Notes under the pieces: generated by a model
Told to the model about the DNA's origin: nothing
Databases searched by the model: none
Seen by the model: only the letters and a program-made list of their open reading frames with translations
Shown here: positions 4,610-29,400 of the stretch, piece after piece
Position numbering within the stretch: the stretch's first letter is position 1
Layout of the letters: each line of letters opens with the position of its first letter
Position numbers and translations under genes: made by a program
Virus record (IMG/VR): IMGVR_UViG_3300030061_001151
Coordinates: 1 to 43,630 of that record
DNA: 43,630 nucleotides
Source: a virus
Taxonomy: Duplodnaviria > Caudoviricetes
Direction: 5' to 3' (one strand)

Positions 4610-5962
4610 ATGAGTGGATATATAAAAACAATGAAAGATTTAGAAGCGGCATCATACGGTCTAAGAGGCGGTAATGGTAATGCTTTGTTGAAGGCTGCCG
4701 GAGTCGTTGGTGGATTAGGAGGAGTAGGACACGATTTACAACCTGCTTTTAGTGGTGCATCAGGACTAACGGATTTATACAATGTTCTTTACGGACAGAA
4801 AGTATGGTCAATGCTTAACCAAGAGGTTAATGCTTTGTCAATGATTGCTAAGAGGCCATATACCTCAAGTGGTTGGAGAGTTCTAAAGAGCCGACCTCAA
4901 GGTGGTAGTGGTTCTGCTTTCGCACTTGGTAGTGGAGCAGCAGGAAGTGCTGCACCTAAAGCATCAGTAATTGGTGGAGTTGCAGAAAATGCTTCTCTAA
5001 GTAGTATTACTGCATTAGCCCCTGAATACACAAAACTGAATGTAAGCCCTAAAACAATAGCACACAAATTCGAGTTCTCTGAACTTGCAATGGAACTTGC
5101 TGCTATTGATGATGGTGTTGGTGATATACGTGCTATAATCCGTGAGGATATGGGTAAACACCACGCTGAAGTACAGAACAAGATGTTATTAACACCTCTT
5201 GAAGTATATTCAGAAACAGGAACAGGAGATATTGTTAACAACTATACATCTTTGTATAAGGTTGTAGCAAGTGCTGAAGAAATTGGTCAAATGTACACTG
5301 ATGATTTAACTGACTTAGGTGCAGGTGGTACTAATGAAGCCCTTGAAGATACATTAGTAAGAATCTATGGACAAGATAGAGGAGTTACAGTTAGTACTGA
5401 AACTATTACAGTTGTATCTGATTTCTTGGATGCTGAAGTTGACTTCGGTGCAAGTTATGCAGCAGGTTCTACTAGAGTATTAACTTTAACAATACTAAAT
5501 GACATGATTCGTAGAATCCGTCAAAATGGTGGAAACCCTAAAGTTATCTTAACAGGATACGATACTATACAACATATCTCTGACTTGCTACAAAGCCAAG
5601 AGAGATTTATGGATAGGAAAGAAGTAGTTCCTACACATAACGGTGTTCGTGGAGTTAAAGGTGCTGAAGTTGGTTTCAGAGTTGCAACATACTATGATAT
5701 ACCAATTATCCCTTGTAAGGATATGGGTTCAACAACTGCTGCCGGTGTAACAAATGGATTAAGTGATATCTTTGTCTTAGATACAGACCATCTATGGCTA
5801 TCAGTTATGAAGCCTACAGAATACTTCGAGGATGGTATTTCAAATGGAAACCCATTCGGTGTTGGAACTTTAGGAAATCAAGCAATGTACAGAACCATTG
5901 GTGAAGTATGTTGTTCTTTCTTTAAAGGTCAAGGTAAGATAACTAACTTGAAGAGTGCTTGA
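4610..5962 (+). CDS. Major capsid protein (HK97 fold)
   Basis: 450 aa, follows the protease, strong SD (AAGGAGTGA). Capsid-like segments PKTIAHKFEFSE, YYDIPII and C-terminal QGKITNL. Confidence 0.85.
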   Translation: MSGYIKTMKDLEAASYGLRGGNGNALLKAAGVVGGLGGVGHDLQPAFSGASGLTDLYNVLYGQKVWSMLNQEVNALSMIAKRPYTSSGWRVLKSRPQGGSGSAFALGSGAAGSAAPKASVIGGVAENASLSSITALAPEYTKLNVSPKTIAHKFEFSELAMELAAIDDGVGDIRAIIREDMGKHHAEVQNKMLLTPLEVYSETGTGDIVNNYTSLYKVVASAEEIGQMYTDDLTDLGAGGTNEALEDTLVRIYGQDRGVTVSTETITVVSDFLDAEVDFGASYAAGSTRVLTLTILNDMIRRIRQNGGNPKVILTGYDTIQHISDLLQSQERFMDRKEVVPTHNGVRGVKGAEVGFRVATYYDIPIIPCKDMGSTTAAGVTNGLSDIFVLDTDHLWLSVMKPTEYFEDGISNGNPFGVGTLGNQAMYRTIGEVCCSFFKGQGKITNLKSA

Positions 5963-6812: not shown

Positions 6813-7087
6813 GTTCTAGTGGTAGTGGAGTACAGACGGCTGATGCATTGGTTTTCAAAGGTAAGTGTAAACTTATGAGTGTACACGGTTGTAATGCTTC
6901 AGGTTCAGCAGTAACTATTTCTGTTTATGATAGTGATGATGCTTCTGCATCCGGTGATGTAGAAGTCTGTAGAATGGTTTTAGCCTCTAATGGTTCTTTT
7001 GAATACGATATGCATGGTAGATTTTGTGCTAAAGGTCTTTTCGTTGATATAACAGGAACAGGTCATTACTCCCTAGAGTGGAGTTGA
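6809..7087 (+). CDS. Small beta-rich virion-type protein; start uncertain (ATA 6809 or TTG 6848)
   Basis: The frame is open back to 6797. Composition resembles the other small structural proteins. Confidence 0.6.
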   Translation: MGSSGSGVQTADALVFKGKCKLMSVHGCNASGSAVTISVYDSDDASASGDVEVCRMVLASNGSFEYDMHGRFCAKGLFVDITGTGHYSLEWS

Positions 7088-7092
7088 TTATT

Positions 7093-7518
7093 GTGCCAAG
7101 CATAGATAATGATACAAGATTAGTAATGACTATTCTTTTTGTTGGAGCAGTTAGCGGAGTAAATGTTTACTTCTATGCACAATATGGAGTAGGTTTTCCA
7201 TATACTGTTGAAGCACACGCAATTTTATTTGGTATATCTACAATAGGTGGAATCATGATAATGAAAGCAGTATTTGATTTAATTGCTAATGATTATATTG
7301 AAGAGACTTTATTACAAAGACGGATTGATGCTTATTGGAATCGTAGAGCGAGAGAAGAAGAGAACCGTAAAAGAGTTCGAGAATCTTTTAGGAATTTCCA
7401 ACAAACATGGAATAATACAGTTCAATCTCCTACTAATGTTTATGGTGATGGTAATTTACCTACCATAAAAGGAAATACAGAAGGAGTAAGTCCTTCCTTT
7501 TTAACAATAGAACAATGA
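7093..7518 (+). CDS. Membrane protein: two transmembrane helices plus a charged coiled-coil tail
   Basis: Hydrophobic LVMTILFVGAVSGVNVYFYA and AILFGISTIGGIMIMKAVF, then RRAREEENRKRVRE. A GGAGTTGA SD favours GTG 7093 over 7078. Confidence 0.75.
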   Translation: MPSIDNDTRLVMTILFVGAVSGVNVYFYAQYGVGFPYTVEAHAILFGISTIGGIMIMKAVFDLIANDYIEETLLQRRIDAYWNRRAREEENRKRVRESFRNFQQTWNNTVQSPTNVYGDGNLPTIKGNTEGVSPSFLTIEQ

Positions 7519-7531
7519 TTGAGGTGAGATA

Positions 7532-7756
7532 GTGGTTGGAGAAATCCTAATGGGTTTTGATGAAACCGCTATGGCTTACGATTTACAAAGAGCACATTCT
7601 GCTGACATTTGGTTCTTGAGAGCAAGATTTTGGATATGGGGAATTGTGTGTTCAATTGGAAGTTTCTTTCTTGGACAAACATTAGCAATATTTGGTATTA
7701 ATACAATGTCAATATTGTGGAATGGGTTAGTGGACTTTTGGCATCATTTGTGGTGA
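7532..7756 (+). CDS. Small Trp-rich membrane protein
   Basis: 74 aa, GAGGTGA SD, transmembrane segment FWIWGIVCSIGSFFLGQTLAIFGI and amphipathic C-terminus LWNGLVDFWHHLW. Confidence 0.75.
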   Translation: MVGEILMGFDETAMAYDLQRAHSADIWFLRARFWIWGIVCSIGSFFLGQTLAIFGINTMSILWNGLVDFWHHLW

Positions 7757-7760
7757 TAAC

Positions 7761-8432
7761 TTGTCTGTAATGGCAGGGTTTGCTATTTTAATGGTGGAGG
7801 GATTGAATAAAGTATATCAAAGATTACATTCAATACCCTTTGGTGTATATGGTGCGAGCAAAGCAGGGAAAACAACATTACACCACCAATTGAGAACTAG
7901 AGGAGAAGTACCTGATATAATGGAAAGAACTGTAGGTTTAGAAAGAGCCACAAGAAAATATATCAAATTAGATGGTAATGCACACACTGTCAAAACTGCT
8001 GATATTGGTGGACAAACTATTTATTGGACAGAATGGATAAAAGATATGAAAGAGCGTAGAACAAAATATATTATTTTTTTAATTGATGATAGACATATGG
8101 ATAAACACTATGATATTGAACAACAATTGTGTTGGACATTTTTAGTAGATACTATTTGTGCTAGTCATTGGAATGTTAAAAACAAATTAAAAAAGAAAAA
8201 AGACCATGATTATCCTATAGCAGTGGGTGTTTGGGCAAACAAATATGATTTATGGAAAGACAAATATGAACATGAAGGAGAAATAGAAAAGCATCCTATT
8301 TTTGATGCATTTAGAGCAGGAATGCAAAAATTAAATGAAAAGGGAATTCCTTGTTTTAAATACATTGTTAGTGCCAAAACTGACTCAACTATGGTATATA
8401 GAGGAATCTTAACAATGATAAAGGACTACTAG
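7761..8432 (+). CDS. Ras-superfamily small GTPase, Arf/Sar-like
   Basis: All five G motifs in order: G1 GASKAGKTT, G2 RTVG, G3 DIGGQ, G4 WANKYD, G5 VSAK. Hydrophobic/amphipathic N-terminal helix. Confidence 0.9.
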   Translation: MSVMAGFAILMVEGLNKVYQRLHSIPFGVYGASKAGKTTLHHQLRTRGEVPDIMERTVGLERATRKYIKLDGNAHTVKTADIGGQTIYWTEWIKDMKERRTKYIIFLIDDRHMDKHYDIEQQLCWTFLVDTICASHWNVKNKLKKKKDHDYPIAVGVWANKYDLWKDKYEHEGEIEKHPIFDAFRAGMQKLNEKGIPCFKYIVSAKTDSTMVYRGILTMIKDY

Positions 8433-8434
8433 GT

Positions 8435-9121
8435 GTGAAGACCATGACGATGAACTATCAGCCACCTAATTTAATTGGTGCAACTACTACATCTGTAGCG
8501 TCAAATGCCTTCATGGACAGGCATGACCAAGCAAGAGCAGCAGGTACAGTAATGTTGTACGAATTTAAGAATATAAAACCGAAAAAACAATTGAAAGAAA
8601 TAACTAAGATTCTTTTACCTGAGAAAAAATCTTTTCTCAAAATACCCTATAGTTTCAAATATAACATGAAAGATAGATGTGTTGTATGTGGAACACAAAA
8701 AGTTTGGGAATCAAGTGATAATCTTAGACCTCCTTTACCACTACATAAGGTTCGCAAAGGATATCCAATGAGAGGAACATATTGTGAGAAACATGCTCAA
8801 ATACATAGACAATATGAAATGTTAGAACAACAGATATTAGCGGAAGAACATGGATTGTCCTATAGTGCGTATATTCCTAAAATGCCTAATTTGAATCCAC
8901 TATCTAGTGGGCCATTAACAAGTTTAAAACAAGGAGATATACAATCTCTTGCGGGTCTAGGTTGGACAATTAAACCTCCTCAAGCAAAGAGTGAAAGTAG
9001 AGAAGAAGAATTATTTAGACTATTAATAGAAAATGAATCTAATACCAAAAGAGTGAAAGTCTTATTGACCGAAGGCGTTAAGGTTACAAGTGGAAGCGTA
9101 CAGGCGGAGAGTGAGAAGTAA
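8435..9121 (+). CDS. Hypothetical protein with a putative Zn finger (CxxC...CxxH); start may be ATG 8444 or 8450
   Basis: CVVC and YCEKH motifs. Its stop overlaps the next start (TAATG). Confidence 0.7.
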   Translation: MKTMTMNYQPPNLIGATTTSVASNAFMDRHDQARAAGTVMLYEFKNIKPKKQLKEITKILLPEKKSFLKIPYSFKYNMKDRCVVCGTQKVWESSDNLRPPLPLHKVRKGYPMRGTYCEKHAQIHRQYEMLEQQILAEEHGLSYSAYIPKMPNLNPLSSGPLTSLKQGDIQSLAGLGWTIKPPQAKSESREEELFRLLIENESNTKRVKVLLTEGVKVTSGSVQAESEK

Positions 9122-9807
9122 TGGGATTATTCGGAACAAGCAATTCACAATTGGCTACTAGTATATCTAATAGTCAACAAACACAATTTAAAACAATGAA
9201 CAATTTATTAACATTACAAGAGAATCATGTAGAAGATTTTTTTCAATATCATGGTGAGGCTTTTCTCTCTAGTATGGAACAATTAATTGAAGATGTAGTT
9301 GCTAGAGTAGTTGGAGATATGTTATCAAAATTGGAATTTAATACATCAAGTGGTGGTTTTGTTTTAAATACAGATGTTAAAGAACAATTTCAACAAATTA
9401 CTGATGCTAACATAGAATTAGATTTACAGAACTTATTGAATTCAGCAATAAATTCAGAAGTTATTATGCAACGTAGAATGGCTAAAGCACAATACTTGGA
9501 GTCTCAAGGATTCGGTGGACAAGCAGCCGCTACACAACCCCAACTTAGCAATCCGATGGGAATGAACCCACAAAATATACAAGGTAGTAATATGGGAACA
9601 GGAATAAATAATACTATGATGCAGCAACAAATGGCTATGAATAATGGTAGTGGATATCCTGTTCCTCCTGCCGGATACGATAATATGAATAATGCATATT
9701 GGATAGACCCTAATACAGGTCAAATGACATATACACCTCCTGCAAGTGGATTAGGTTTAGGTGCGGCTATAACCAAAGGCGTTGCTTGGGCTAAATGGCT
9801 TGCATAA
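9121..9807 (+). CDS. Hypothetical protein: helical N-terminal half, Q/N/M/G/P low-complexity region, amphipathic C-terminus
   Basis: Begins MGLFG and ends GLGLGAAITKGVAWAKWLA. Translationally coupled to the upstream gene. Confidence 0.75.
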   Translation: MGLFGTSNSQLATSISNSQQTQFKTMNNLLTLQENHVEDFFQYHGEAFLSSMEQLIEDVVARVVGDMLSKLEFNTSSGGFVLNTDVKEQFQQITDANIELDLQNLLNSAINSEVIMQRRMAKAQYLESQGFGGQAAATQPQLSNPMGMNPQNIQGSNMGTGINNTMMQQQMAMNNGSGYPVPPAGYDNMNNAYWIDPNTGQMTYTPPASGLGLGAAITKGVAWAKWLA

Positions 9808-9820
9808 GGTGGTTTGATGT

Positions 9821-11824
9821 ATGGGCGAAATGACAATACCTGCTGACATAGTTCCTAATACAGAACAAGACGTTGTATTAGATACTAAAGAACTAAGTCA
9901 GAATTTTGATGCATTGAGTTCTCAAGATAATAAGAACCCTATTCCATTAAGTATGTTAGCATATATCTTTTCTAGAGTTATGCGTTCTAGTGAAAGAAGT
10001 GATAAAATGAAAGAAGTAAAAACACAGTTAATAAGTCTGTTACAAAAAGATGATGCTGATTTTGAAATGTTGCGAAGAAGAGAAGAGGGATTAATTGACA
10101 AAATTACTGAAGCAGAAATAGATAGACATTTTAGACATTATTTAGATAAAATAGAAGAAACAGATATATTGAACTTGATAACTGCATTAAAAGAAAATGA
10201 CTATATAGATAAAATTAGTTTTGACCTCTTAGATGATGATAAATTAAAAAATTTTAAATTATCACAATTGGATAATCAATCTGCAATAAATAGATTAATG
10301 AGTGTAGTTGAAAGAGGAGAAGATGTATCATCTGAAGATGAACCTGAAGATGAACCTGAAGATGAGGATGATGATTTTGAAAGAAGTGGAAAATTAATGA
10401 GTGCTATTGATAGTTCTAAACCTATACTGTATCCTATGATTACACAGTACATAAAAGAGAAAGGAGAAGGATTTGAAATAGATACTAAAGAATATATGAA
10501 CGAAGTCTTTGAAAAAGAAGGATTTGGTTCTATTGATAGTGAAGATTTTCCTTTTAAAACAGGTTTGCTTGGAGGTAAATTTAAGCAACAAAAAGGTGAA
10601 GAACAGGGTGAAGAAAAAGGAATTCCATTATTACATTTGAAGTTAGTTGGCAAAAAAGGTGTAGGGAGATATGAAAAAGGTGAAGATAAATTTCTTCTTG
10701 AAACCTTTGAAGGTAGTAAAAAATTTGACACATTGGAAGATGCATATGATGGTATAGAAGATTTTATGAAAAAAACACTAAGCAGCAAAAATTTTCTTGA
10801 TAAGATAATACTTAAACAAGACAAACATCCCTTGAAGAATATTCTTTTAAAATATTTAACCGCAGAAAGAAGAGAATTAAGATTAGGTAACATAAGTGTA
10901 GATATAGAAACAGATTTTGTGAAAGAAAAAGAAAAATGGGTAGCAAGTATGGAAAAGAAATTTAATTTAGCGGGAGGTATAGATGTTAAATTAACTCGTA
11001 AAGATAGAACAATAGCAAAAAATATATTTCAAATTATGTCAAAGTTTGAGAACTTCGATGGTGAATTATTACAGTCTTTAGTAGATAATGAAGTACAGGG
11101 TCAAAAAGATGCAAATGACATTATTTTAGACTATTATGGTGTATCTGAAGCAAAGGATGCTGCTGAAGACACACAAAATGAAATAGAAGATAATAACAAT
11201 AACTGGTCTGAAATTGAAACTCCATATAAATTATTAAAAGAAAACGATGAAGTGCCTGTTAATTTGATGGATATTTTAGATGAATATAAGGCATTACAAA
11301 CTAAAAATGAATTTGATTTTGAAAATGTTATGCTTTATGTAAAAGATTTTGCCAGTGGAGGAAAGGGAAAGGCGGGATATGTACAAGGAGCAAGTAGAAT
11401 ACCAATAATTACTGCTGATGTAACATTTAATATGTCTACGCTTCTTGATACTAGACCTAAAAATTATCAAATGTTTATTCGCAAACCTAGAGCCGCACGT
11501 AATGTTAGTAGAGGTAAAAAACAAAGAGAAGGTAGATTTAAGGAATTAAGACAAAAAGAGGAACGATTCAAGAATCCTAAACTACGAGCAAAGTATTTAG
11601 GTCCATTTAATCTTAGTGATGAAAAAATTGATGCTTACTTTGAAGGTCGCTATGAACCACTATCAGATGAAGAAAGAGAAGAATTTGAAAATCTTACTGA
11701 AGAGTTAAAGAGGGAAGAAGAAAAAGAAACAGAACAACCATTTGATATAGTTAAAATTCAGAAAGATTTTTTAAATGTTAAAAGAGCCTATAACAGTCTT
11801 AAGGCAATAGTAGGAGGTAATTAA
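9821..11824 (+). CDS. Large acidic, charged hypothetical protein
   Basis: 667-aa ORF with no recognisable motif. Contains a short EDEP tandem repeat near 10334-10363. Confidence 0.75.
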   Translation: MGEMTIPADIVPNTEQDVVLDTKELSQNFDALSSQDNKNPIPLSMLAYIFSRVMRSSERSDKMKEVKTQLISLLQKDDADFEMLRRREEGLIDKITEAEIDRHFRHYLDKIEETDILNLITALKENDYIDKISFDLLDDDKLKNFKLSQLDNQSAINRLMSVVERGEDVSSEDEPEDEPEDEDDDFERSGKLMSAIDSSKPILYPMITQYIKEKGEGFEIDTKEYMNEVFEKEGFGSIDSEDFPFKTGLLGGKFKQQKGEEQGEEKGIPLLHLKLVGKKGVGRYEKGEDKFLLETFEGSKKFDTLEDAYDGIEDFMKKTLSSKNFLDKIILKQDKHPLKNILLKYLTAERRELRLGNISVDIETDFVKEKEKWVASMEKKFNLAGGIDVKLTRKDRTIAKNIFQIMSKFENFDGELLQSLVDNEVQGQKDANDIILDYYGVSEAKDAAEDTQNEIEDNNNNWSEIETPYKLLKENDEVPVNLMDILDEYKALQTKNEFDFENVMLYVKDFASGGKGKAGYVQGASRIPIITADVTFNMSTLLDTRPKNYQMFIRKPRAARNVSRGKKQREGRFKELRQKEERFKNPKLRAKYLGPFNLSDEKIDAYFEGRYEPLSDEEREEFENLTEELKREEEKETEQPFDIVKIQKDFLNVKRAYNSLKAIVGGN

Positions 11825-11825
11825 A

Positions 11826-12926
11826 ATGGGCAAAGTTTCATCCCCTAGTGATTTTACAAATATAAATGTGGATTATTCAGCAGGTAATGGACATTATACT
11901 ACTCATACAGATATTTCTAATTTATTACAAATAAGTTCGTTTAGTGCAAATACAACTCCTAATCTTTCTGAAATAGGTAAACTAATAAAAAGAGCAGAAG
12001 AAAAAATTGATGATTCTATTAAAACATCATACAGACCTATTATTTACAAAGACGAATTCCATTCATTTGATAATCTAAGACAACGTGCATATCCTATTAG
12101 ACCATACAAAGACTATGTAGGATTTATTCAGTTAAGTTATCCTAAAGTACAAAAGTTGGTTAGATTAGAAGTATATCAAGGCGATGTATGGAAAGATTTG
12201 GCTTCTGCTACTGCAACATTAACAGTTCCTAATTCTGCAACTACAAATGATTGGACAATAACATTAACTGTAGGTAATCCTACTACCTATACTTTTGAAA
12301 TTAAAAACTTAGCAAATAACAGTGTTAGACATTTTTATGATAATTTTGGCCCTAAGACTACGGCAAGTCAAATAGTTGATGCTATTAATGAAGTGTACCC
12401 TATGAAAACTGCTAAGTTTACAGGAGAAACTGCACCTAAATCTATTACTGCAAATGGTTCTACTACTGTACATGTTTCTGATTTCTTTTATGCTACTTTA
12501 GATAGTGAAGATAAAACAACCATAGTAATTAGTTCATTATTAGATGGAGAAGATGGAACATTTTGTACATTATCTTCTACATATGGTTCAGTATCTTCCT
12601 TTGATGATAATCAAACTTCAGGAAGAGATGATGATTATTGGACTATAAATGATGAAGGAAAAATTTTCTTTAGACAACAATACCCATATAATCAACACCA
12701 TTCAATTAGAGTTACCTATGTTGCAGGTGAAGGTAGAGTACCTGCTCCTATACATGAGGCAGCCACAAAACTTGTAGCGGCTGAAATAATTAGACATGAT
12801 GATAATTCAATATTAATTGCTGAAACAGGTTCTAATATTGATTTGAAAGCCAAACATGATATATTATTGGAAGAAGCAAATGCAATCTTAAATGGGAAGA
12901 AAAACCTTGTTCATTTTATATCGTGA
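11826..12926 (+). CDS. Head-tail adaptor (neck) protein
   Basis: N-terminal YTT..DI..LL and C-terminal IRVTYVAG..RVPAPIHEAATKLVA, as in gp6/gp15-like adaptors. Position between head and tail genes. Confidence 0.7.
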   Translation: MGKVSSPSDFTNINVDYSAGNGHYTTHTDISNLLQISSFSANTTPNLSEIGKLIKRAEEKIDDSIKTSYRPIIYKDEFHSFDNLRQRAYPIRPYKDYVGFIQLSYPKVQKLVRLEVYQGDVWKDLASATATLTVPNSATTNDWTITLTVGNPTTYTFEIKNLANNSVRHFYDNFGPKTTASQIVDAINEVYPMKTAKFTGETAPKSITANGSTTVHVSDFFYATLDSEDKTTIVISSLLDGEDGTFCTLSSTYGSVSSFDDNQTSGRDDDYWTINDEGKIFFRQQYPYNQHHSIRVTYVAGEGRVPAPIHEAATKLVAAEIIRHDDNSILIAETGSNIDLKAKHDILLEEANAILNGKKNLVHFIS

Positions 12927-13669: not shown

Positions 13670-15196
13670 ATGGTAAGTAATGAGATATTTGTAGGAGCAG
13701 GAGTAACTGCTAGTTTAGCACCGGAAGCCCGTATATTTCTAGGTGATGATGTTCAAACTGCTGCTACTGATACAACAAATAATAGTAGTACTGTTACATT
13801 AGATTCATACGCAGCAGGAGATATAGGGATAGATTTAGTTCCTAATCTATATGTTGGTTGTTTTATAGAAATAGAATTGGCGGCAGATGCCACTAAAAAG
13901 AACATATATCTTATTGAATCTAATACTGTAAGTACTATAACAGTTACAGGAGATATAAGAGGAGATATGGGTGCAACTACAGATGTTAAAGCAACAATAC
14001 AATCCTTTGGAGCACCTGTTCCTACGCCACCTGTTAATTCTAAAACAACTATATTATCTGACAATTGGTTAGGTCTTGTTAATACTTTTACACCACCAAA
14101 CGTAGAAGTAGAAACAGGTGAATTAAATTTAGTTGCAGGTGGTTCTAGAAATTTAGGATTTCAATTTACTAAAGGTGAAACAGTTAGTGGTGGAAGTATT
14201 GAGTTTTCAATGAATAATCCAATGTGGTTATACTATACATTAGGAAGTATGAGTTTTACTATGTCTAGTCCTACTAGTACAGATACATCGGGAATAACCA
14301 TAGATACAGATGGAACTAATAGTGCAATCATTAGAAGATTAACAGATTCAGGTGCAGGACACCATGCATATCCTGACCCTACACCTACAGGCGTTGCTCT
14401 TGCAGATGGTACTCATGGTTTAATACATGCAAGTAATCCATTTGTTTATACTATAAGTGAAAATAATAAAGGAACATTACCTTCATTTGCTCTAGATGTT
14501 GCATATGCAAAAGGTGGTAAATCGGGTGCAGACTATTCAGTTCAAACAGTACAATCATCTAGTACACCTGAAGAAGAAGTATACTCTAGAATCTTTACAG
14601 GGTGTCAAGTTAATTCTCTAAATATACAATTTGATGAAGGACAAGAAGTGAAAAATTCAGTAGAATTAGTAACTCGTAGTGCATTCGATGCACCACAAAA
14701 TTATTCACCACAAAGACAGGTAACAGACATAACATCTTTTGCAAATTATTCAGAGAATAAAATACCATACTTATTCCATGATGGTACAATTGAAATATAC
14801 GGTCAAACATTCGCTAGAGTAAAATCCGGTAGTTTAACAATAAATAATAATATTGTAGGTCAAAGATTTATTGGTAATTATAACAATCAAATTATGTCTA
14901 ACCATACTGCCGGACAAAGACAATATGAATTATCTTTAACACTTCTTATCACTGATACAAAGGTTTGGGATTTAATGAGAGAAGGTGGTGAAGATAATAC
15001 CAACATTCTCAAACTAAGATTTGAAAGAAGTGCTACTGATTTTGTAGACTTACAATTTAAAGATTATATTACTCGTTCTGTTTCTGTACCATATCCTGAT
15101 GATAAAGGACCAATTGAAGTTGAACTTACAATAAGCCCTAGAACATTACACAGTTGTACTTCACAAAGTAGATGGGCTATATTCAATGTTGATTAA
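13670..15196 (+). CDS. Major tail (tube) protein with accessory domains
   Basis: Tail-tube-like segments RIFTGCQVNSLNI and VKSGSLTINNN. Precedes the chaperone and tape measure. AGGTGA SD. Confidence 0.7.
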   Translation: MVSNEIFVGAGVTASLAPEARIFLGDDVQTAATDTTNNSSTVTLDSYAAGDIGIDLVPNLYVGCFIEIELAADATKKNIYLIESNTVSTITVTGDIRGDMGATTDVKATIQSFGAPVPTPPVNSKTTILSDNWLGLVNTFTPPNVEVETGELNLVAGGSRNLGFQFTKGETVSGGSIEFSMNNPMWLYYTLGSMSFTMSSPTSTDTSGITIDTDGTNSAIIRRLTDSGAGHHAYPDPTPTGVALADGTHGLIHASNPFVYTISENNKGTLPSFALDVAYAKGGKSGADYSVQTVQSSSTPEEEVYSRIFTGCQVNSLNIQFDEGQEVKNSVELVTRSAFDAPQNYSPQRQVTDITSFANYSENKIPYLFHDGTIEIYGQTFARVKSGSLTINNNIVGQRFIGNYNNQIMSNHTAGQRQYELSLTLLITDTKVWDLMREGGEDNTNILKLRFERSATDFVDLQFKDYITRSVSVPYPDDKGPIEVELTISPRTLHSCTSQSRWAIFNVD

Positions 15197-19021: not shown

Positions 19022-22000
19022 ATGGCAGGTAAAATCACATATCCAGTTAACGCAGGAATATTAGATTCTGCGGTAGTCAGTGATTATGATGATAGACTTA
19101 CTGAGTTTAATAATAATAGAGCCTTTAGTAATGTATCTGTTAATCCTGTATTAAAAACAGTAGATATCAATGAGGAAAATTCTGCTTCTGCTGCCGCCTT
19201 TGTTAATTCTGCTATCTTTACAGAAATAAGAAAGAGTTCTCATACAGGAAGTATTTCTAATGATGCAGTTTCTAGAATAGGTAATAGAATACTACCTGTT
19301 GATAGTAGTCCTAGTAGTAGTGACTTAGCAGTATATGCTACTAATAAAGAAGAGACTCATGGATTTAAAGTTAAATTGTATGATAGTTCTATTAGTTCAT
19401 CTACAACAAATAGACAATTTAAATTTTCTACAACTGATTATCCTAGTTCTGATTTTGTTGGAATAGATATAGATAATTATGATTACTTTATTTTAATTAA
19501 TCCTGATATTGTAAGTGTAGGAACAGATAGTGTTAGACCGCACTTTGCAAAGATTACAGGTATTGTAGGTTTTGATGTATTTGGAGATGGATTAGAGTTT
19601 AGCCCTAGTTATCCTACAGGTGTTCCTAATGATGCTAAAGTTGAGATATTCAAAGGGCCAGCAAAAACAGATACAGATGTTGTAGCAGTAAGTTATGGAT
19701 TAAGAGGTGATGCTAATGCTAGTACACCTAAATATGATGTATTCAATATAGCAAGTAGACCTACTTTCTATTTTTACAATGATAGATTAGATGAAGATGA
19801 CCAATTAGATTATACAACAAAATATACTGTAACTGTATTACGTTGGTGGAATTATGGAACAACTATTACAGGAACGACAGTGTATGCTCATTCTCAATTT
19901 GACGAAGGTTTAGAAAATCAATCACAAAAATCTATGATAGTTTCCTCTAGTGATTATGATAAATTAACAGAAGGTATGTCTTTATTCGATACTAATGGAG
20001 TTTATTTAGGTAACATAGAAGGTTTGTTTATTAGTGACCCAACGGGTTCTGCTACCTATCGTTTGTATTTGGATTATGCTAGAGTTGCTATATCTGCTGC
20101 TTCTAATGTTACATTAAAAATAGGTAAAACAATTCAAAATATTGTATTTAGAACAGAGTCTAAGTTTGGAGATACTATTCAGAATATAGGTAAACATAGG
20201 TTAGATGCAGTGCTTGTAGATGCAAATAGAGATTTAGATGATGCAGGTAAACAATATAATTTTGCAGTGGAAGATACAGGTGTTTTAGTAAATGGTGCGT
20301 TAAATGCAGATGCAGGAGTAAATATTACTGTAGATACTGTAGATGCAACTACTAAATTTGCAATAGGTGATACAGTATATGATGATGCTGATGCAGTTGT
20401 AGGAGTTATTAGTGCTATTACTTCTACACAAATAACATTACTAGCAAACAATGTAGTGGCATTAGCAAACAATGAAAATCTCAAAAGACATGTTCCTGAT
20501 TTTAATCCTATTAGATGGCATAAAGCATTTCCTAGAATGCATAGACAGGCTGCTAATCTTCTAGTTGTAAGTAGTGCCGTAGATGGTGGAATGACAGGTG
20601 CAAGTAAATATTTAACATTTGAAAAATCTGAATTAAAAAATGATAAGATACCATTAGTACAGGGTTCTAATTTAAACAATCCTAAGAATAAGATGACAAA
20701 GATAGCACAAGTAACTTATTTAGATAATAGCGGTATTGGACATAAGAAAATCAAAGAAGATGAAATACTCAAAATGCGTAAGACTACTTTTATTGATAAC
20801 TTGGAGTTCAAACCAATACAAGGAAGAACTACTATAGTTAGCAACGTATTTAGAATAATGGATTTAGATAGTAATTATGATTTGAAAAGTATTCTCGCAG
20901 CAAATTCTATTGTTAAGATTAAAGGATATTATTACGTTGTTGATGCTGTCGCTACGAAAGTCAGAGACTCAGCAGGAGATTATCAACAATTTACTATAAA
21001 GGCTAAAAGAGAAGAAACCGCTAATACATGGACAGTTAGTTCTACACCTGAAGCAGCAGCAGGTAATAATCACCCAATTTTAGTTGCAGGGTATACACAT
21101 GTTCTAAATGTAAAATTTGAGGCTGATACAGAATATGACATTAATCAAACTAGATTAACACTGAATGGTAGAACTATAGATAAAGAAGATGCTAAATTAT
21201 ATAATGCAAGATGTACATTTAAAACATTCAATGCTCATGAAAACAAAATTGATTATATCGACAAGGTGCATAAAGTAATAAAGTTACAAAATGAAGATAC
21301 TAAGTTTTACCAAAGTACAGGTAGAAGATTAAATTATTATAATGGAGGATATGCCATACATGAAGAAGTATTTAGTGGTGTAATAGAAGATATACAAACT
21401 ATGACTGAGAATGGTGTAAATGCTATTACAGTTACAGGTAGAGATGATGTATCTAAGTTCTTATCTAAAACGATTAACAGAAATTTAGTTTCTAGTGATG
21501 ACTTAGTAATGAGTACTATGTCACCTTATACAGGAACAGTTGAGGCGTTTAAGAACGGAAGCGGTACAAGTCTAACTGGTAATAGTAGTAATATGTTGGT
21601 AGGTAAAGTTGTAAAATTAAATGCTACAGGTGGAGTTGTTAATAAATATGAAATTATAGTAAATCAAGCCGGAGAACTATTAGGAGAAGTTGTTAGTATT
21701 GATGGAACAGATATTACTTTGGCTCATACTATTTGTGAAACACCCACTACATCAACTACTGCAATAAAACATTATGACCCCTTTGTAGATAATACTCGTT
21801 TAATATCATTCAAATCATTACAGTCTAATTCTGCTCATACTGATACAATTAATGATTTTGCCTCTTTTAGTGAGAAAGGATTAATATTCGATAAGGCAAT
21901 TAAATTAGATGGGAGAGTTCCTAGTCACACTATTGTGGATGTACAAGGTTCTTCTAATACAGGAGACAACTTCGATGACAAGACATTAGGCTATGATGTT

Positions 22001-25000
22001 AGTTCGATAAGAAGTGCTTCAACTAATGATGCTGCTCATGCCTTTTTTATTGGAAACGAAGATGGTATAGTTAATGAAATAACAAACTATAATTCTTTAA
22101 ATTCAGAATCTTTTGCCGTAGTGGAAGTAGATGAAAAGAGTGAATCTGAAACAGTAATATCTATTGCTCCTAAAATGCCTATTGTATTAGGAAGAATAGA
22201 TACAAATACATCTGACACTAGAGGTAATACTCATATCTATATGGTAAATAATAATATTAATACGGGAGGATATATACATCGCTTACCTGATACCTTTGAC
22301 GGAATATATCATCCAAAAGAAACAATTAGATATTGGGATTTACAGACTTTTGAAGCAGGTACTTTAACAAGGACATCTGATACCATTTATAGTGAAGGAA
22401 TCAAACCACAAAAAATACAAGGTTATGCAGTAGGATATGGTACAACAGTTACAGGTACGGTTACTGACCCTGCTATAACAGCAGATAACAAACCTATACT
22501 CGGTAGTAATACTATTAAGAATTATACACAAAGAACAGCCTTCTATGGAAATCATGACCTAATAGAATCATATCAATATAACCAGTCACATGGTAGTAGT
22601 GGTAATACAGTAAAAGAGTATGATATTATGTATGATGTGTTTGAACAAATAGACCCTAGAACTATTCCATATGAACTAATGGCCGTAGGTGATATATACC
22701 CATTGTCTAAATTAAGATGGAATAATTTAGGGTTTCACACACTTAGTTATGACCAATTTGCTATTTTATTAGAATCTACTCCATCTGTTACAAGTTCAAC
22801 AAATCATCAATTATATGATGGTACAACTAAACAAACTGTAAAAACAGAAAATATGTTTGAAACAGGACAAATACAAAGTGCAACACAGACTACAAATCAA
22901 CTTAGAAGATGGGGTGTTATTAAATTAGTAGAAGCAACTTTTGATTGGCACTTTAATCCTATAGATTTTGAGTCTTTGAAACCCTCTGAACAAATACCAA
23001 CAATTCCTTATTTTGATTATGTAATGTTTGATACTCCAACCGCAGATACAGGTACAATACAAATAGGGGAAAACGGTGAAATTGATAGTGAATCTTTGAC
23101 TGAAAGTGAAGGGGATGTGTTTTATGATGAACAGGTTATAGGGGCTTATCCATCTACAGGAGACAATGTGGCTAGTGGATATGCCGTTGTTTCTAACGCT
23201 AGTGGAATAGTCGTTCCTACTGAATCAAATGGATTAATTGTAAAGCATGATGGTAGTGTGTTTAGACCTAATGCTGCATTTGATGATGATGGGTTTACAA
23301 CTCTATATGGAAATACATCGGGTAAAGATATGTTACGATTTGATGGTAATTCTGCGGTAGAAGGAGTAGAAAGATTCAGAATACATAGAACAATTGATTA
23401 TATGATTGATAATTTAGATACTACTACTGATGCTAATTTTTTGACAGACCGAAGAGATGCATTAAAAAATATAAGATGGACAGATGTTTTCTTTACTAGA
23501 AGAGGTAGTAAAGCAAATGCTAATTTTAAATTTGGTAGATTATCTGATGGTGGTGATGAATATGAAGCACCAAATGTTATATTACCAATAATTGCAGAAG
23601 AGAAAGTAAACACTGGAAATAATGAAGACCGAATATTTAGTCCATTTATTCATGGAACTAATTGGGGTTCAGGAACAAGACATTTCCTTCATATGTCAAG
23701 AGTAATTGCAGCATTAGTTGAAAGGTACAAAAGTAGTAATACATATTTTAGTATATTAGATAAGTATGGTATGGGGTTAACTGATACTAATTCTGCTACC
23801 TTTGCTCATCCATATCAAAATTGTATTGGTGTATTCAAGGATATTAGACAGGCTGAGTCTGATAGTACAGTGCGACTAGATACATTATCTATTTCTTCTG
23901 CTCCGCTAGACTTAGATACTGATTCTAATTATGCGGATTATATAGATGGGGTAGGTAATACATTAGACCAACATACACGTACTTCTTTTATACAATCTTA
24001 TCCCAGTAGTACAACCCTTTCTATGATTGGCACAAGAACTGATGGAGATTTTCTTGGAGACAAGAAGGCTATTGCCAGTGGACTTAATGCAACTCATGCA
24101 GCATGTAATTCAGGAGATGGAATTGTTTGTTCTGCTCAAATGTTAGTTAAACCTGTTTTTAATTTAACACATGGTAGTGGTGGGGTTACTGTATCTAATG
24201 CTCAACTAACCTTTGTACTGAATGCAGATACAGGACATGCTTGGTTAAGTTTTATGCCTAACTTAACAGGTTATTATATTGTATCTGAGTCTCTTACTGA
24301 TGTTTCATTATCTGCTAGTGCAGTAGCAGGAAGTCTAAGAAAAGACCCTGATAGTGCTTATCCTGCTGACATTCACAAAATAATAAGCCACACTGTTTCT
24401 ACACTACCTACTACATCCAATATTGAAACTCATACTATTACGGTAGATGCTAATTTAACAATAGACAGCAATAATAAAAAATATAGATTAATGAGAATTT
24501 CAGAAACCACCTTTGATGGTCACGAAGATAAAATAGAGTTCAATGTAATGAAGCCACAAGAAGTAGCATTTAATTGGAAAAGAGGAGGACAAGATGATGA
24601 TAATCTACAATACCAAGAATCTGTATATGAAATGCATTTACTGTTAGACATAGACAATGCCTCAACATTTATTGAAAGAAGAACTAATACTGCTATAGAT
24701 GACCATTTTACTGATGGTGAAACGATAGAAACATATATCACTGATGGAAATAATTCACAAAGAAAAACATTAACAATCGCTACTACTAGAAAGAAAGGTA
24801 GTTCTGATTCTAAAACAACCGCAGGATTAGTAATGTCATTTAGTGGTTCTCTTACAGGTAATGGTGTTGTATCTTTTGGAGAGATATTTGATGTAAAACT
24901 AGGACAAAGACCCAAAATAAAAAATATAAAACATTGTCATATAGGTAGTTCGTATAGGATTGGAAGTAATGTAGAAAAAGAAGTAGAAAATATTGTGAAA

Positions 25001-26101
25001 GATGCAGGATTAATATATGATAATTCTAAGAGTTTTTCAGAATTTACAGGGAATGTTGTTAACAGTGTAAATAGTTTAACTATTACATGTCTTGAAACTG
25101 TTACAAATATAACTGCCGGAGATATATTATATTCAAAGGATGGACATTTAATAGGTAAGGTAGCCTCTACGAGTGGTGCTACTGTTGTTATTGACACACA
25201 GTTATATTATACACCAACACAATATGATGAATTAATTAGAATAAATAAAAGAACATTTATTTCATCTTTAAACTTAGAAGATATAGATGTATTTACTGCT
25301 CTTAATACATTGGTAAACAAGAAAGGACTAGATTATACATTAAAAGATAAGAAAATTATAACAAGAAATCTAGATGATATTAGTAGTTTAAGAAAGTATT
25401 CAGTTGGGTATCTAGAGGCTAATAGATTAATTAGTGTAGAAAGTAATACTTCTCTGTTTGATAAAGCAAACAAGGTTATAGTTGTTGGTGATAAAATAAG
25501 AACAGAAATAACTAGCCCTGTAAAAGGAACTGATAAGGTAATTAGAATAGTAGATTCTTCTATTAAAGATATAACTGAAGCAAATCAAATTGCACAAGAA
25601 ACATTGAATGTACATAATGGTGAAAGTAGAAAGATTACTTTAACATTAGATAAAAAAGGATTAGAGTTATTAGAAGCAGGTGATATACTAACTTTGAATT
25701 TCCCACAACATAATATTCCTAAAGCAGATTATCAAGTGTTTGAAATTGAAAATGTATTAGCAGGTGTAATGAAAATAACAGTTGGAACGTTTGATAAAAC
25801 AATTGCAGAAAGACTTAGTGAGATATCATTAGAACAAAAGAAATCAAATATCAGTTTAATGAAAAAAGATGCACTAATTGTTAGTGCAGGTTTAGCATTA
25901 TTTGATTCTATTAATATCAATTTCATTGACGTAAGTTATGAAATTACTAGTACAGTTGTAGAAAATCCAAACTTAGGATTTGATGATGTAGTTGGGTTTA
26001 CTGAGACCGTAAACTTTGATACACAGACTACCCTCAAGTCGAGTTATGATGATGGTGTGATTGAGAGAGCAGAAAAATATACGGACATGATGGAGGATTA
26101 A
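19022..26101 (+). CDS. Very large tail tip/baseplate hub protein
   Basis: 2359 aa. Tal-like segments (VFSGVIEDI..ITVTGRD; NKVIVVGD; LLEAGDILTL) separated by large beta-rich insertions. Confidence 0.7.
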   Translation: MAGKITYPVNAGILDSAVVSDYDDRLTEFNNNRAFSNVSVNPVLKTVDINEENSASAAAFVNSAIFTEIRKSSHTGSISNDAVSRIGNRILPVDSSPSSSDLAVYATNKEETHGFKVKLYDSSISSSTTNRQFKFSTTDYPSSDFVGIDIDNYDYFILINPDIVSVGTDSVRPHFAKITGIVGFDVFGDGLEFSPSYPTGVPNDAKVEIFKGPAKTDTDVVAVSYGLRGDANASTPKYDVFNIASRPTFYFYNDRLDEDDQLDYTTKYTVTVLRWWNYGTTITGTTVYAHSQFDEGLENQSQKSMIVSSSDYDKLTEGMSLFDTNGVYLGNIEGLFISDPTGSATYRLYLDYARVAISAASNVTLKIGKTIQNIVFRTESKFGDTIQNIGKHRLDAVLVDANRDLDDAGKQYNFAVEDTGVLVNGALNADAGVNITVDTVDATTKFAIGDTVYDDADAVVGVISAITSTQITLLANNVVALANNENLKRHVPDFNPIRWHKAFPRMHRQAANLLVVSSAVDGGMTGASKYLTFEKSELKNDKIPLVQGSNLNNPKNKMTKIAQVTYLDNSGIGHKKIKEDEILKMRKTTFIDNLEFKPIQGRTTIVSNVFRIMDLDSNYDLKSILAANSIVKIKGYYYVVDAVATKVRDSAGDYQQFTIKAKREETANTWTVSSTPEAAAGNNHPILVAGYTHVLNVKFEADTEYDINQTRLTLNGRTIDKEDAKLYNARCTFKTFNAHENKIDYIDKVHKVIKLQNEDTKFYQSTGRRLNYYNGGYAIHEEVFSGVIEDIQTMTENGVNAITVTGRDDVSKFLSKTINRNLVSSDDLVMSTMSPYTGTVEAFKNGSGTSLTGNSSNMLVGKVVKLNATGGVVNKYEIIVNQAGELLGEVVSIDGTDITLAHTICETPTTSTTAIKHYDPFVDNTRLISFKSLQSNSAHTDTINDFASFSEKGLIFDKAIKLDGRVPSHTIVDVQGSSNTGDNFDDKTLGYDVSSIRSASTNDAAHAFFIGNEDGIVNEITNYNSLNSESFAVVEVDEKSESETVISIAPKMPIVLGRIDTNTSDTRGNTHIYMVNNNINTGGYIHRLPDTFDGIYHPKETIRYWDLQTFEAGTLTRTSDTIYSEGIKPQKIQGYAVGYGTTVTGTVTDPAITADNKPILGSNTIKNYTQRTAFYGNHDLIESYQYNQSHGSSGNTVKEYDIMYDVFEQIDPRTIPYELMAVGDIYPLSKLRWNNLGFHTLSYDQFAILLESTPSVTSSTNHQLYDGTTKQTVKTENMFETGQIQSATQTTNQLRRWGVIKLVEATFDWHFNPIDFESLKPSEQIPTIPYFDYVMFDTPTADTGTIQIGENGEIDSESLTESEGDVFYDEQVIGAYPSTGDNVASGYAVVSNASGIVVPTESNGLIVKHDGSVFRPNAAFDDDGFTTLYGNTSGKDMLRFDGNSAVEGVERFRIHRTIDYMIDNLDTTTDANFLTDRRDALKNIRWTDVFFTRRGSKANANFKFGRLSDGGDEYEAPNVILPIIAEEKVNTGNNEDRIFSPFIHGTNWGSGTRHFLHMSRVIAALVERYKSSNTYFSILDKYGMGLTDTNSATFAHPYQNCIGVFKDIRQAESDSTVRLDTLSISSAPLDLDTDSNYADYIDGVGNTLDQHTRTSFIQSYPSSTTLSMIGTRTDGDFLGDKKAIASGLNATHAACNSGDGIVCSAQMLVKPVFNLTHGSGGVTVSNAQLTFVLNADTGHAWLSFMPNLTGYYIVSESLTDVSLSASAVAGSLRKDPDSAYPADIHKIISHTVSTLPTTSNIETHTITVDANLTIDSNNKKYRLMRISETTFDGHEDKIEFNVMKPQEVAFNWKRGGQDDDNLQYQESVYEMHLLLDIDNASTFIERRTNTAIDDHFTDGETIETYITDGNNSQRKTLTIATTRKKGSSDSKTTAGLVMSFSGSLTGNGVVSFGEIFDVKLGQRPKIKNIKHCHIGSSYRIGSNVEKEVENIVKDAGLIYDNSKSFSEFTGNVVNSVNSLTITCLETVTNITAGDILYSKDGHLIGKVASTSGATVVIDTQLYYTPTQYDELIRINKRTFISSLNLEDIDVFTALNTLVNKKGLDYTLKDKKIITRNLDDISSLRKYSVGYLEANRLISVESNTSLFDKANKVIVVGDKIRTEITSPVKGTDKVIRIVDSSIKDITEANQIAQETLNVHNGESRKITLTLDKKGLELLEAGDILTLNFPQHNIPKADYQVFEIENVLAGVMKITVGTFDKTIAERLSEISLEQKKSNISLMKKDALIVSAGLALFDSININFIDVSYEITSTVVENPNLGFDDVVGFTETVNFDTQTTLKSSYDDGVIERAEKYTDMMED

Positions 26102-26464: not shown

Positions 26465-29400
26465 ATGGTACAAAATAACCCTGATTTTCTAAGTACTATG
26501 AGTACAAATCCTAATGTTAGATTAGCCGATGGAGCAGATAATATTCACAGTTTAATATTTGCTCAAATGAATATTGCTACTTCTGATAATAGAGTTATAG
26601 ATGGATTTAATATTACTCAAAATACAAGTGGTACATATACTACTTATGCAGTTAGTTTGGGTTCAATATTTAGAGATGGTTTATTAGTTTCTATCGCTGC
26701 TACAACTTCTAATTTAACTGTTGAAATTGCTCAAAAAACTTTTGATTGGTATGGTGTATTAGTAATTAATAGTTCAAATGCATTTGCTATTAGAACAGGA
26801 GCATCTAGTGGTTCTTCTGCAAAAGTTTCTACATTATCTGCCGGAGATATACCGATAGCAGTTATTAAATTCGCTGCAAATCAATTAGGAGTAGAGAATC
26901 AAATACAATATTTGGCTTATGGACAAACTGTTAGAGAACTTTCTATTGTAAATGAAGCAGGTGGTGTTCCCTCAGAAACACTAAGAATAAATAAAACAGG
27001 TACAATATCTAAAATTTCATCAGGAAGTGTTGCAGGAACACTAACATTACCTGATGCTACAGGAACTATTGCTCTAACAAGTCAAGCATATACTCATCCT
27101 AACCATAGTGGTGATGTAACTTCTAATGCAGATGGTGCTACAACTATTGCTAATGATGCCGTTACTTATGCTAAAATGCAGAATGTATCTGCTACTAATA
27201 GAATATTAGGAAGAGATTCTTCGGGAGCAGGAGATGTAGAAGAAATTACACCTGCTAATTTGCGTACCATGATTAATGTTGAAGATGGAGCAACTGCTGA
27301 CCAAACAGATGCACAAATAGAAACTGCATATAATAATCAAGTTGCAGCAGTTAGTTCACAAGAAAGAACAGATGGAACTGTAACTGCCATTAGAAGATTT
27401 ACTCCTGCTGATATTCATAGTATGATTGATACACATGCTTCAGATACTAATACAGATGTAGATGTTTCAATTGCTAATCTAAAAACTAAATTAAACAGTG
27501 ATTTTGGTGGAGACTTTACAATAGGTAGTCAGAATGATGATACTGCAACGATTAGTGGTCATCTAACTGTTGGTGGTAATTTAACAATTCAAGGTAGTAC
27601 AACTACTATTAATACTGAAACAGTTTCTCTACAAGATAATATTATTTTATTGAATAGTAATTCTGCTAATACTCCTAGTGAAAATGCAGGATTAGAAGTA
27701 GAACGTGGTAATTCTAACAATGTAAAATTAAGATGGAACGAATCTACAGATAGGTGGCAATTTACAAATGATGGTTCTACTTACTTTAATTTACCAACTA
27801 CCGCAGAATTAGCAAACCCATATACTCACCCTGATAGTGATGTTGCTAATTTAGATACAAGCGGAGCAGAAGTATTAGATACATTAGTGACTAATGCTAC
27901 TGGTCATATTACTGCTATGACAAAGAGAACATTAACTAAGGGAGATTTAGGATTAGGTAATGTCGAAAATACTGCTATCTCTAGTTTTACAGGTACAAGT
28001 AATATTGCAACTGTAGGAACTATAGGAACAGGAACATGGCAAGGCACTGCAATTGCAACCGCTTACATAGCAGATGATGCAATTACTCAGGCTAAATTAG
28101 CAGATGATGCAGTAGGTGCTGACCAATTAGCATCTAATGCAGTAGTTAATGCCAGTATTGCTTCTAATGCTGCCATTGCACAAAGTAAAATAGATGGCCT
28201 ATCTACTTCTTTATCCGGTAAAGAACCTAGTCTTACAATTGGTCTTGGGTTAAATAGAAACAGTGCAACTCTATCTCTAGATATAAATTCTTTAACAAAT
28301 GAAAATGCTATTCATAGAACTAATGATACTTTAGCCTTTTATGATGCTGATGGTAATACAACTAAATTAAGAAAGGTAACACTAGAAAATATACTAAATA
28401 AACTAACTTCTGCTGATATTCCTGCTGATGCTATTACAGGAGCAAAAATCGCTGACGATGCAGTTGCAGCAGAACATATAGCAAGTAATGCTATTGTAAA
28501 TGCTTCTGTAGCAAGTGATGCAGCAATCACTGCTGATAAATTAGCAGATGAAAGTGGTACTAATTCTTCTACAAAAAAGATATTTACATATGGTGAACAA
28601 CAAAAACTTGCAGGTATTGCTGCAAATGCAAACAATTTCTCTTTAACAAGTAGTTCAGTTACCAATGCTCATCTAGCAGGAAGTATTGCAAATTCTAAAT
28701 TATCTAACTCTTCTGTTACAGTTAACAGTAATGCAGTAGCATTAGGAGGAAGTATTACATTAGATACAGATGATATTGGTGAAGGTAATAATAAATACTA
28801 TACTGATGAAAGAGTAGATGACAGAGTTAATGCTTTAATTACGGCAGGAGAAGGAATAGATACTTCATATGATGATAGTTCTAATGCTTTGACCATATCA
28901 ACTGAAGATGCCACAAGTTCCAATAAGGGAGTTGCTTCTTTTGCTAGTACTGATTTTGATGTTAGTAGTGGTGCAGTTTCTATTAAAGCAGCAGGTGTAA
29001 GTAATTCACAATTGGCAGGTAGTATAGCACAAAGTAAAGTAACTAATTTGGTGTCTAATTTAGCAGCCAAAGCACCAATAGCAGACCCTACCTTCACTGG
29101 TGAAATAGGAATAGGTGACGTAAATGTAAGTGAAACAGAATTAGGTATCCTAGAAGGGGCTACTCTTACAACAACAGAATTAAATTATGTAGATGGGGTT
29201 ACATCTTCTATACAAACTCAATTAAATTCTAAGTTATCTTCATTATCTGTATCAGGATTAAGTGATGTTTCTTCCGGTCTAATTCAGAGTATAACTAATG
29301 GTTCAACATCAGATACAATACCGAGTGCAGCCGCCGTGTATAGCCTAGTACAAGGTGCTTCAAATATAACTAGGTTATATGAGGTTGATTTTGCTGATGT

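Follow-up and report, generated by a model that had tools for sequence, protein, structure and literature searches.

Prokaryotic small GTPases can be encoded beside a dedicated regulator, as MglA is beside the Roadblock protein MglB. Within the Arf family, the defining feature is a nucleotide-driven interswitch toggle that releases an N-terminal helix (bioRxiv 10.1101/2024.02.28.582541). In Haloferax, the archaeal small GTPase ArvA carries an N-terminal amphipathic helix, drives vesicle formation, and is encoded ahead of partners that include a zinc-binding protein proposed as a GTPase-activating protein (GAP) (PMC10927574). How tailed archaeal viruses exit from cells without peptidoglycan is an open question; their lysis proteins are uncharacterised, and a review only speculates on the use of the host GTPase (PMC10791045). 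Here we describe a block of five genes, designated A, B, G, C and D, on the + strand at positions 7093-9807 of IMG/VR virus record IMGVR_UViG_3300030061_001151, a stretch of 43,630 nucleotides that is referred to in its full length as the window. The block encodes a divergent Arf-like GTPase with four orphan partners and, as judged from its sequence and distribution, is a module that is both conserved and portable, carried by large viruses with links to Marine Group II archaea. With good confidence, it can be regarded as a GTP-switched module at the host membrane.

Architecture of the five-gene block

All five open reading frames (ORFs) are present and are separated by 13, 4, 11 and -1 nt in the order A-B-G-C-D, the last value reflecting a TAATG overlap between C and D. 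The flanking gaps are equally tight (5 nt from 7087 to 7093 and 13 nt from 9807 to 9821), and the block is therefore delimited by synteny and not by spacing. An earlier note, made from this DNA alone, had pointed to five tightly packed genes with a TAATG overlap, and the ORFs, spacing and motifs bear this out; the small GTPase that it proposed is real and Arf-like, as indicated by both structure and profile matches. Its descriptions of the partners hold for the numbers of transmembrane (TM) helices, the CxxC/CxxH pairs and the low-complexity region, while the coiled coil of A and the amphipathicity of the D C-terminus rest on visual judgement. As the note had also stated, neither a Roadblock family nor one of holins or endolysins is recognisable among 32 scanned ORFs of the window (Pfam, PHROGs); holins are too diverse to be excluded in this way, and the window is 47% complete.

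Gene A (7093-7518; GTG start; 141 aa) encodes a protein with two predicted TM helices, located by hydropathy scan in windows at residues 10 and 43, after which come a charged helix and a tail of variable sequence that ends in PxFL. It has no Pfam or PHROG family match. Gene B (7532-7756; GTG start; 74 aa) is likewise an orphan and encodes one predicted TM helix (window at residue 38) between a strongly conserved polar N-terminal motif (residues 8-33) and a Trp-rich C-terminus. On its + strand, the late operon has no small TM ORFs other than A and B.

Gene C (8444-9121; 225 aa) is an orphan that most likely begins at the ATG at 8444, since its homologues start with M-x-M/N-Y-Q. The product appears to be soluble, with no TM window in the hydropathy scan, and two pairs, C78xxC81 and C113xxH116 (numbered from 8447), are invariant in 21/21 members and form a predicted zinc site. 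One relative of C that contains internal stops (L020:7105-7779), owing to a frameshift or an assembly error, was left out of this alignment. C matches no Pfam family above the cut-off and no PDB entry, and we regard it as a candidate regulator or effector. Two other identities were considered and rejected. ArfGAP proteins contain a CxxC-x16-CxxC zinc finger with an invariant Arg; in C the spacing is CxxC-x31-CxxH, no member of a set of 30 matches the ArfGap family in Pfam, and the Arg after the second pair varies among R, K and M and is absent in a sister clade (clade II, below). A portal identity was dismissed because Atlas returned unnamed viral clusters, with portal leads below 0.9 and a low recognition score. 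In a separate observation, an inserted gene of ~250 aa separates B from G (L308:9229-9999 and L317:9217-9999) in one lineage, and the C of that lineage no longer has the second Cys/His pair.

Gene D (9121-9807; 228 aa), an orphan whose ATG lies in the overlap with C, encodes a conserved helical core, a Gln/Met/Gly-rich middle and a short hydrophobic C-terminus. The motif AWAxWLA is invariant in 22/22 members, and the hydropathy scan gives no TM window. D is a candidate coat or scaffold protein. Complex prediction for G with residues 25-200 of C, in the presence of GTP and Mg, gave scores of 0.00, 0.34 and 0.00 and thus no verdict either way.

The GTPase and its relatives

By its G1-G5 motifs and predicted fold, the product of gene G (7761-8432; TTG start; 223 aa) is a Ras-superfamily small GTPase. 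All motifs are intact: G1 GASKAGKT (7851-7874), the G2 Thr T57 (7929-7931), G3 DIGGQ (8001-8015), G4 NKYD (8238-8249) and G5 SAK (8370-8378), all on the + strand. Residues G31/G36/K37/T38, T57, D81/G83/G84, W92, N160/K161/D163 and S204/A205/K206 are invariant in 16/16 aligned rows of the window's lineage (clade I), and G1, G3 and G4 occur in 18/18 of the rows listed. An AlphaFold2 model built from a 37-row alignment (pLDDT 86) places a helix at residues 2-22. The closest structure among 48,161 PDB representatives (VIA) is Arf6 (Z 18.2, root-mean-square deviation 2.5, 162 aligned), followed by SR-beta (17.8), an Asgard RagA-like protein (17.4), Sar1 (17.4) and Gi-alpha (16.9). MglA and ArvA are not among the matches listed in this search, which does not exclude either. 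G-alpha matches of a first model, made from a shallow alignment (pLDDT 60), were set aside as the model was poor.

Once P-loop-only repeats such as RecA fusions had been set aside, the G family profile ranked Asgard ArfR 8OUN (E 3.8e-7), Arl8A, 8OUM and Arl5 above Rab33 and KRas. The window's G scores 23.7 bits against Pfam Arf, for which the cut-off is 22.3, but at E<=0.05 the 37 members of the family yield only 12 matches to Arf, 17 to Roc and 17 to MMR_HSR1. Automatic annotation labels two G clusters "GTPase SAR1 family protein". No match to G was found in 50,697 phage records (tblastn, E<=1).

At its N-terminus, G has 12 residues without charge, after which comes a basic, amphipathic stretch. 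Across the 13 scored rows of clade I, the helix has a KD15 of 1.3-2.0 and a hydrophobic moment of 0.5-1.0, this moment residing on its second half, the first half being uniformly hydrophobic. The myristoylation signal Gly2, a feature of eukaryotic Arf proteins that is absent in Arl8 and ArfR, is also absent from G, and S2 is invariant in clade I. The switch II Gln is present in the window's G, and across 16 clade I rows this position is Q in 5 and E in 11. Elsewhere it is Q in 51, E in 23, D in 5 and H in 1 of 80 clade II rows, D in 8 and Q in 5 of the 13 rows from a third tailed lineage, and H in the contigs described below as group-D-like.

Comparisons can be drawn with Arf6, Arl8, Sar1, SR-beta and Asgard ArfR (8OUN/8OUM; bioRxiv 10.1101/2024.02.28.582541), with which G shares its fold, the G1-G5 motifs and a DxGG..W switch II. 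Like Arf proteins, G has an N-terminal helix before the P-loop, and the Arf family supplies its best structural and profile matches. Unlike them, it shows only ~14-20% identity, a longer and more hydrophobic N-terminal helix, no Gly2, a switch II Gln that is often replaced by E, D or H, and a basic insertion near residues 139-150, and it is virus-encoded together with four orphan partners. Because only 12/37 members match Pfam Arf, Gly2 is lacking and the switch II Gln varies, G is best described as Arf-like and as a probable family of its own, with the features of the Arf family proper present only in part.

The other described systems differ from the block in their partners. The Arv operon is probably the closest analogue in function, with a small GTPase that bears an amphipathic N-terminal helix and is followed by partner genes, but it is cellular and has three genes, of which ArvB is DUF2073 and ArvC is DUF2072 (PMC10927574). 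Neither DUF gave a Pfam match for A-D, nor for 30 homologues of C at E<=1, and the viral block has in addition two TM proteins and a Gln-rich protein. Unlike the MglA-MglB pair, the block has no Roadblock family among its surroundings. The Ras, Rab and Ran GTPases of giant eukaryotic viruses resemble G in being virus-encoded, and all of the viral structure-library matches listed come from such viruses; they differ in having eukaryotic hosts, 10-20% identity to G and no known A-D partners.

More distant Arf-like proteins were seen on short contigs (P0036, P0046, P0064, P0067, P0068 and P0072); their nearest non-viral look-alikes in Atlas are bacterial Arf-like clusters and one Asgard cluster. 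A cellular origin for the clade I GTPase was considered on account of a sole GTDB match and rejected, as the match lies in a full magrovirus structural locus that was probably mis-binned into a bacterial metagenome-assembled genome. In this genome (G001; L192, L265-L267), three contigs carry GTPase genes of magrovirus type, three in all. Given that the GTPase examined there sits in such a locus, these are likely mis-binned viral contigs, and none of 400 other genomes of the same phylum matched G at E<=1e-6.

Conservation and selection in the window's lineage

Searches with G matched 112 and 185 viral contigs, of which 80 of each were kept, giving 106 distinct loci; the order A-B-G-C-D is found in 91/91 loci with room for it. 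A second set was anchored on the HK97-type major capsid protein (MCP; best 80 of 596 matches), as this avoids selecting on G. Here G is present in 61 loci, and the remaining 19 end within 1.8 kb of the MCP gene; where at least 4.3 kb is available, all five genes occur in order in 46/46. The level of identity is higher for G than for MCP in 52/52 MCP-anchored loci (76.9 vs 71.3%). In five pairs, G has a dN/dS of 0.02-0.10, compared with 0.25-0.30 for MCP; the values are 0.06-0.15 for A, C and D and 0.05-0.28 for B. Purifying selection on G is thus strong in 5/5 pairs, and the constraint on it exceeds that on the capsid protein. The RNA data, which comprise one run with a share of 0.06, contigs only and scattered cover, are uninformative on expression or timing.

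A protein that faces the host would be expected to be constrained in this way, and it could be that the block takes over host membrane physiology (blocking division, altering vesicle release or cell size, or excluding superinfection) by mimicking or overriding a small-GTPase pathway of the host. The effects of ArvA, ArvB and ArvC on vesicles and cell shape in Haloferax (PMC10927574) are in keeping with such a role, as is the freedom of the block to change position (below). We nevertheless consider it unlikely, since the block lies inside the structural operon in 46/46 loci of the window's lineage and is never missing where there is room, whereas host-takeover genes are usually patchy in their distribution.

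The block in other viral lineages

The five-gene block is present in at least five divergent lineages, at differing genome positions. A profile search with G against 1.84 billion representatives gave 72 matches, revealing sister clades near 30% identity; in a G tree, which held no eukaryotic or Asgard Arf and from which three partial proteins were dropped, starred clades are formed by the window's lineage, by the group-D-like set and by a group of tailed clade II members. Clade II comprises 145 contigs, of which 80 were kept, and the five genes occur in order in 74/74 loci with room. An insert separates G from C in 18/74 of these. The clade II block is usually followed by a sixth gene, encoding two TM helices. 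This sixth gene (L110:11314-11571 and equivalents; 77-105 aa) stands after D in clade II and the P0013 lineage and is absent from the window's lineage. In G002, a complete 107-kb genome with thermosome and helicases that is group-A-like, the block is located upstream of the terminase and portal genes, ~20 kb from MCP. A third tailed lineage of 13 contigs has all five genes in 11/13, with TerL in 2/2 contigs checked. In a fifth lineage, found in metagenomes (11 loci, 5 analysed), the order A-B-insert-G-C-D-E is seen in 4/5, and a resolvase-like gene and a homologue of a 314-aa protein discussed below occur in 2 of the analysed loci.

Sequence profiles clearly relate C and D to their counterparts in other clades, with HHalign values against clade II of E 9e-11 and probability 97% for C, and E 4e-9 and probability 96% for D. 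For A and B the assignment draws on their location and TM pattern, together with a bridging lineage that is matched by both A profiles (E 9e-4 and 2e-20).

These comparisons bear on several claims of the earlier note. The conservation and synteny that it proposed to check are found in 91/91, 46/46 and 74/74 loci with room. Its placement of the block within a capsid-to-neck operon describes the window's lineage and fails elsewhere, the block being upstream of terminase and portal in G002 and after the thermosome gene in group-D-like contigs. Because that position is lineage-specific, the description of the block as late-expressed, which draws on the operon of the window's lineage alone, is limited to this lineage. 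Nor does the block seem to be confined to tailed viruses, since it is also carried by the group-D-like contigs.

The company that the block keeps outside the window's lineage, namely terminase and portal or thermosome genes, and the large size of all carriers examined (67-118 kb where long contigs exist) might point to a viral factory or assembly site at the membrane that is set up or anchored by the module, with G recruiting C and a condensate-prone D to patches of A and B so as to organise replication or assembly and not lysis. Such a factory would suit the Gln/Met/Gly-rich composition of D and would also account for sharing across virion types. It is, however, an improbable reading, as no link to replication genes is seen at any locus examined, and the halovirus HCTV-1, which is of similar size, assembles without the module.

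Group-D-like contigs and the nature of the virion

Four contigs, G003 (110 kb), G004 (46 kb), G407 (65 kb) and G408 (71 kb), contain the five genes in order (4/4), with the block directly following the thermosome gene. TerL and MCP profiles matched 0/4 of them and matched the control G002, and queries for portal, protease and tube likewise had no match in the four. Thermosome is encoded in 4/4, PolB in 3/4 and resolvase in G003 and G004. Group D is described in PMC5434244 as having PolB, thermosome and resolvase and no morphogenetic block, and with respect to these features (PolB, thermosome, resolvase, no head-tail block) the four contigs fit it.

All four also encode an FtsK/HerA-type ATPase and two conserved orphans of ~203 and 314 aa, between which G003 has an Arg/Lys-rich protein. 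The viruses SH1, HHIV-2 and HCIV-1 are tailless sphaerolipoviruses, and they provide the sole matches to this ATPase among the 50,697 phage records (E 2e-3 to 8e-3). It is therefore a putative sphaerolipovirus-like packaging ATPase, on a match that is weak but specific. The 203-aa family is absent from 4/4 TerL-positive genomes checked. Taken together, the sequences suggest that the group-D-like contigs are likely tailless viruses.

Two explanations that tie the block to the virion are affected by these contigs. Location of the block between head and neck genes in the window's lineage, and the general resemblance of TM and low-complexity proteins to ejection proteins, could mean that the virion carries the products and that they function during entry, as an ejected membrane channel with a GTP switch. 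This appears very unlikely, as the block is also carried by contigs that have another, sphaerolipovirus-like packaging module, and in clade II its position is not retained. That the four partners are ordinary head, neck or decoration proteins, with the GTPase a mere passenger, is scarcely credible. The operon location and the portal-family Atlas leads for C, all below 0.9, would favour it, but none of the partners has a PHROG structural match, the true portal, adaptor and tube genes are identified separately, and the five genes move jointly to unrelated sites and into non-tailed contigs. Since the block occurs in contigs without terminase, HK97 MCP or portal matches, its genes do not behave as neck or capsid genes, a possibility that the earlier note had named as one that would undo its proposal; the structural-gene explanation thus seems largely refuted by the group-D-like contigs.

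As a separate observation, a candidate assembly block for tailless viruses can be outlined at L277:3747-12133 (G003), and also in G004, G407 and G408. It contains the FtsK/HerA ATPase, a long protein with Arg/Lys repeats and, at its C-terminus, hydrophobic helices, and conserved orphans of 203, 294, 314 and 406 aa. For two conserved jelly-roll capsid candidates, sequence searches gave no match in PDB, PHROG or the phage records. Relatives of the 203-aa family number 71, and the contigs that carry them reach 143 kb.

A putative role in virus release

That the block moves as a unit between positions and, likely, between virion types argues that it is not part of the head-tail particle, and the combination of two membrane proteins with an Arf-like switch points to the host membrane as its site. 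A module common to several virion types would serve a shared need, such as exit from the same host. We tentatively favour a role in which the block acts on the host membrane, most likely opening or remodelling it for the release of progeny. In such a scheme, drawn by analogy with the Arf/Sar1 and haloarchaeal ArvA systems, A and B would be embedded in the cytoplasmic membrane, where they would mark or load G, and GTP-bound G would engage the bilayer via its N-terminal helix. D could then oligomerise as a coat or scaffold, its C-terminus touching the membrane, and C might time the cycle as a GAP or effector, supplying a catalytic residue that is often missing from G. The outcome would be rupture of the membrane, or budding of virion-filled vesicles, late in infection.

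Holin-endolysin cassettes, and the putative holins of Adrikavirales (PMC11706807), resemble the block in their small TM proteins, late operon and possible role in timing. The block differs from them in being GTPase-centred and highly conserved and in having no holin or endolysin family match.

Several points weigh against a role in release or against the steps that lead to it. The top VIA rows of G (Arf6, SR-beta, RagA-like and Sar1) are within 1 Z unit of one another, and the best Foldseek matches (Rab6, E 2.5e-10; Rab4; Arl1) mix Rab and Arl chains. Cross-lineage homology is weak by HHalign for A (E 0.003, probability 10%, at the same position) and for B against the clade II gene (E 0.0012, probability 19%). 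The second Cys/His pair of C is lost in one lineage, and C has no invariant Arg. Holins are described as diverse (PMC10791045), and the very strong conservation of the block, which is unlike them, would fit an enzyme-like or a host-interface role equally. Outside the window's lineage the block does not adjoin head-neck genes, and its thermosome neighbour would allow early or middle expression. The related halovirus HCTV-1 lacks the GTPase in a profile search, and hence the module is not a universal means of exit for tailed archaeal viruses. The group-D-like contigs are linear fragments, 33-79% complete, in which no jelly-roll fold is confirmed, so that "tailless" is a provisional term for them. 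Finally, Marine Group II archaea are the presumed host by extension from the magrovirus literature.

Conceivably, an Arf-type, GTP-timed machine could be the common exit of large Marine Group II viruses, exchanged across realms between HK97 tailed and jelly-roll tailless forms, such that a eukaryote-like trafficking switch has become an archaeal lysis or budding device; we regard this broader proposal as rather doubtful.

The GTPase fold is known, and the five-gene system matches none described in the literature searched. Those searches yielded no description of it, with subscription papers and most annotation supplements, which may name the GTPase, falling outside their scope, and the term "GTP" does not appear anywhere in the main text of PMC11706807, PMC5434244 or PMC10160649. 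To the question of how tailed archaeal viruses leave their cells the block contributes five concrete, testable genes, in carriers that are very common ocean viruses. It also ties tailed magroviruses to the enigmatic group D, and a membrane-linked Arf-like switch in prokaryotic viruses is relevant to the origin of eukaryotic-type membrane trafficking.

The window and its gene neighborhood

The window is a 43.6-kb linear virus record whose gene set includes a ligase, prohead protease, HK97 MCP, adaptor, tail tube, tape measure and a PolB fragment (Pfam, PHROGs). With a halovirus-like MCP, a ligase within the structural module and archaeal-type replication genes, features set out in PMC5434244, it is by gene content a tailed archaeal virus of the magrovirus type. 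The position of the ligase, along with the lack of a thermosome in the complete relative G005, suggests placement in group B of that study. The MCP gene (4610-5962, +) encodes a protein 25% identical to the HCTV-1 MCP, the nearest named relatives being the haloviruses HCTV-1 and HVTV-1 at 23-25%. It is followed by three small ORFs and then by the five-gene block, downstream of which are a 667-aa ORF, the head-tail adaptor gene (11826-12926, +; phrog_442, E 6.5e-8) and the tail tube gene (13670-15196; Pfam/PHROGs).

The acidic 667-aa ORF (9821-11824), which adjoins D, is much longer in some relatives and is hypervariable, with 22-54% identity where detected and 100% in one near-identical record, between neighbors that are conserved. 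PolB is seemingly split, with a 300-aa C-terminal part (41913-42815, -), and there is a separate 3'-5' exonuclease ORF (36457-37050, -); a split PolB is reported for group B1 magroviruses (PMC5434244). Adjoining the PolB fragment is a 114-aa ORF (43172-43516, -) with a strong match to Pfam Viral_Rep (PF02407, E 4e-17). This domain is typical of small circular DNA viruses and is found here in a tailed dsDNA virus. The tail region contains two very large ORFs of 2359 and 2955 aa (19022-26101 and 26465-35332), which have almost no family match.

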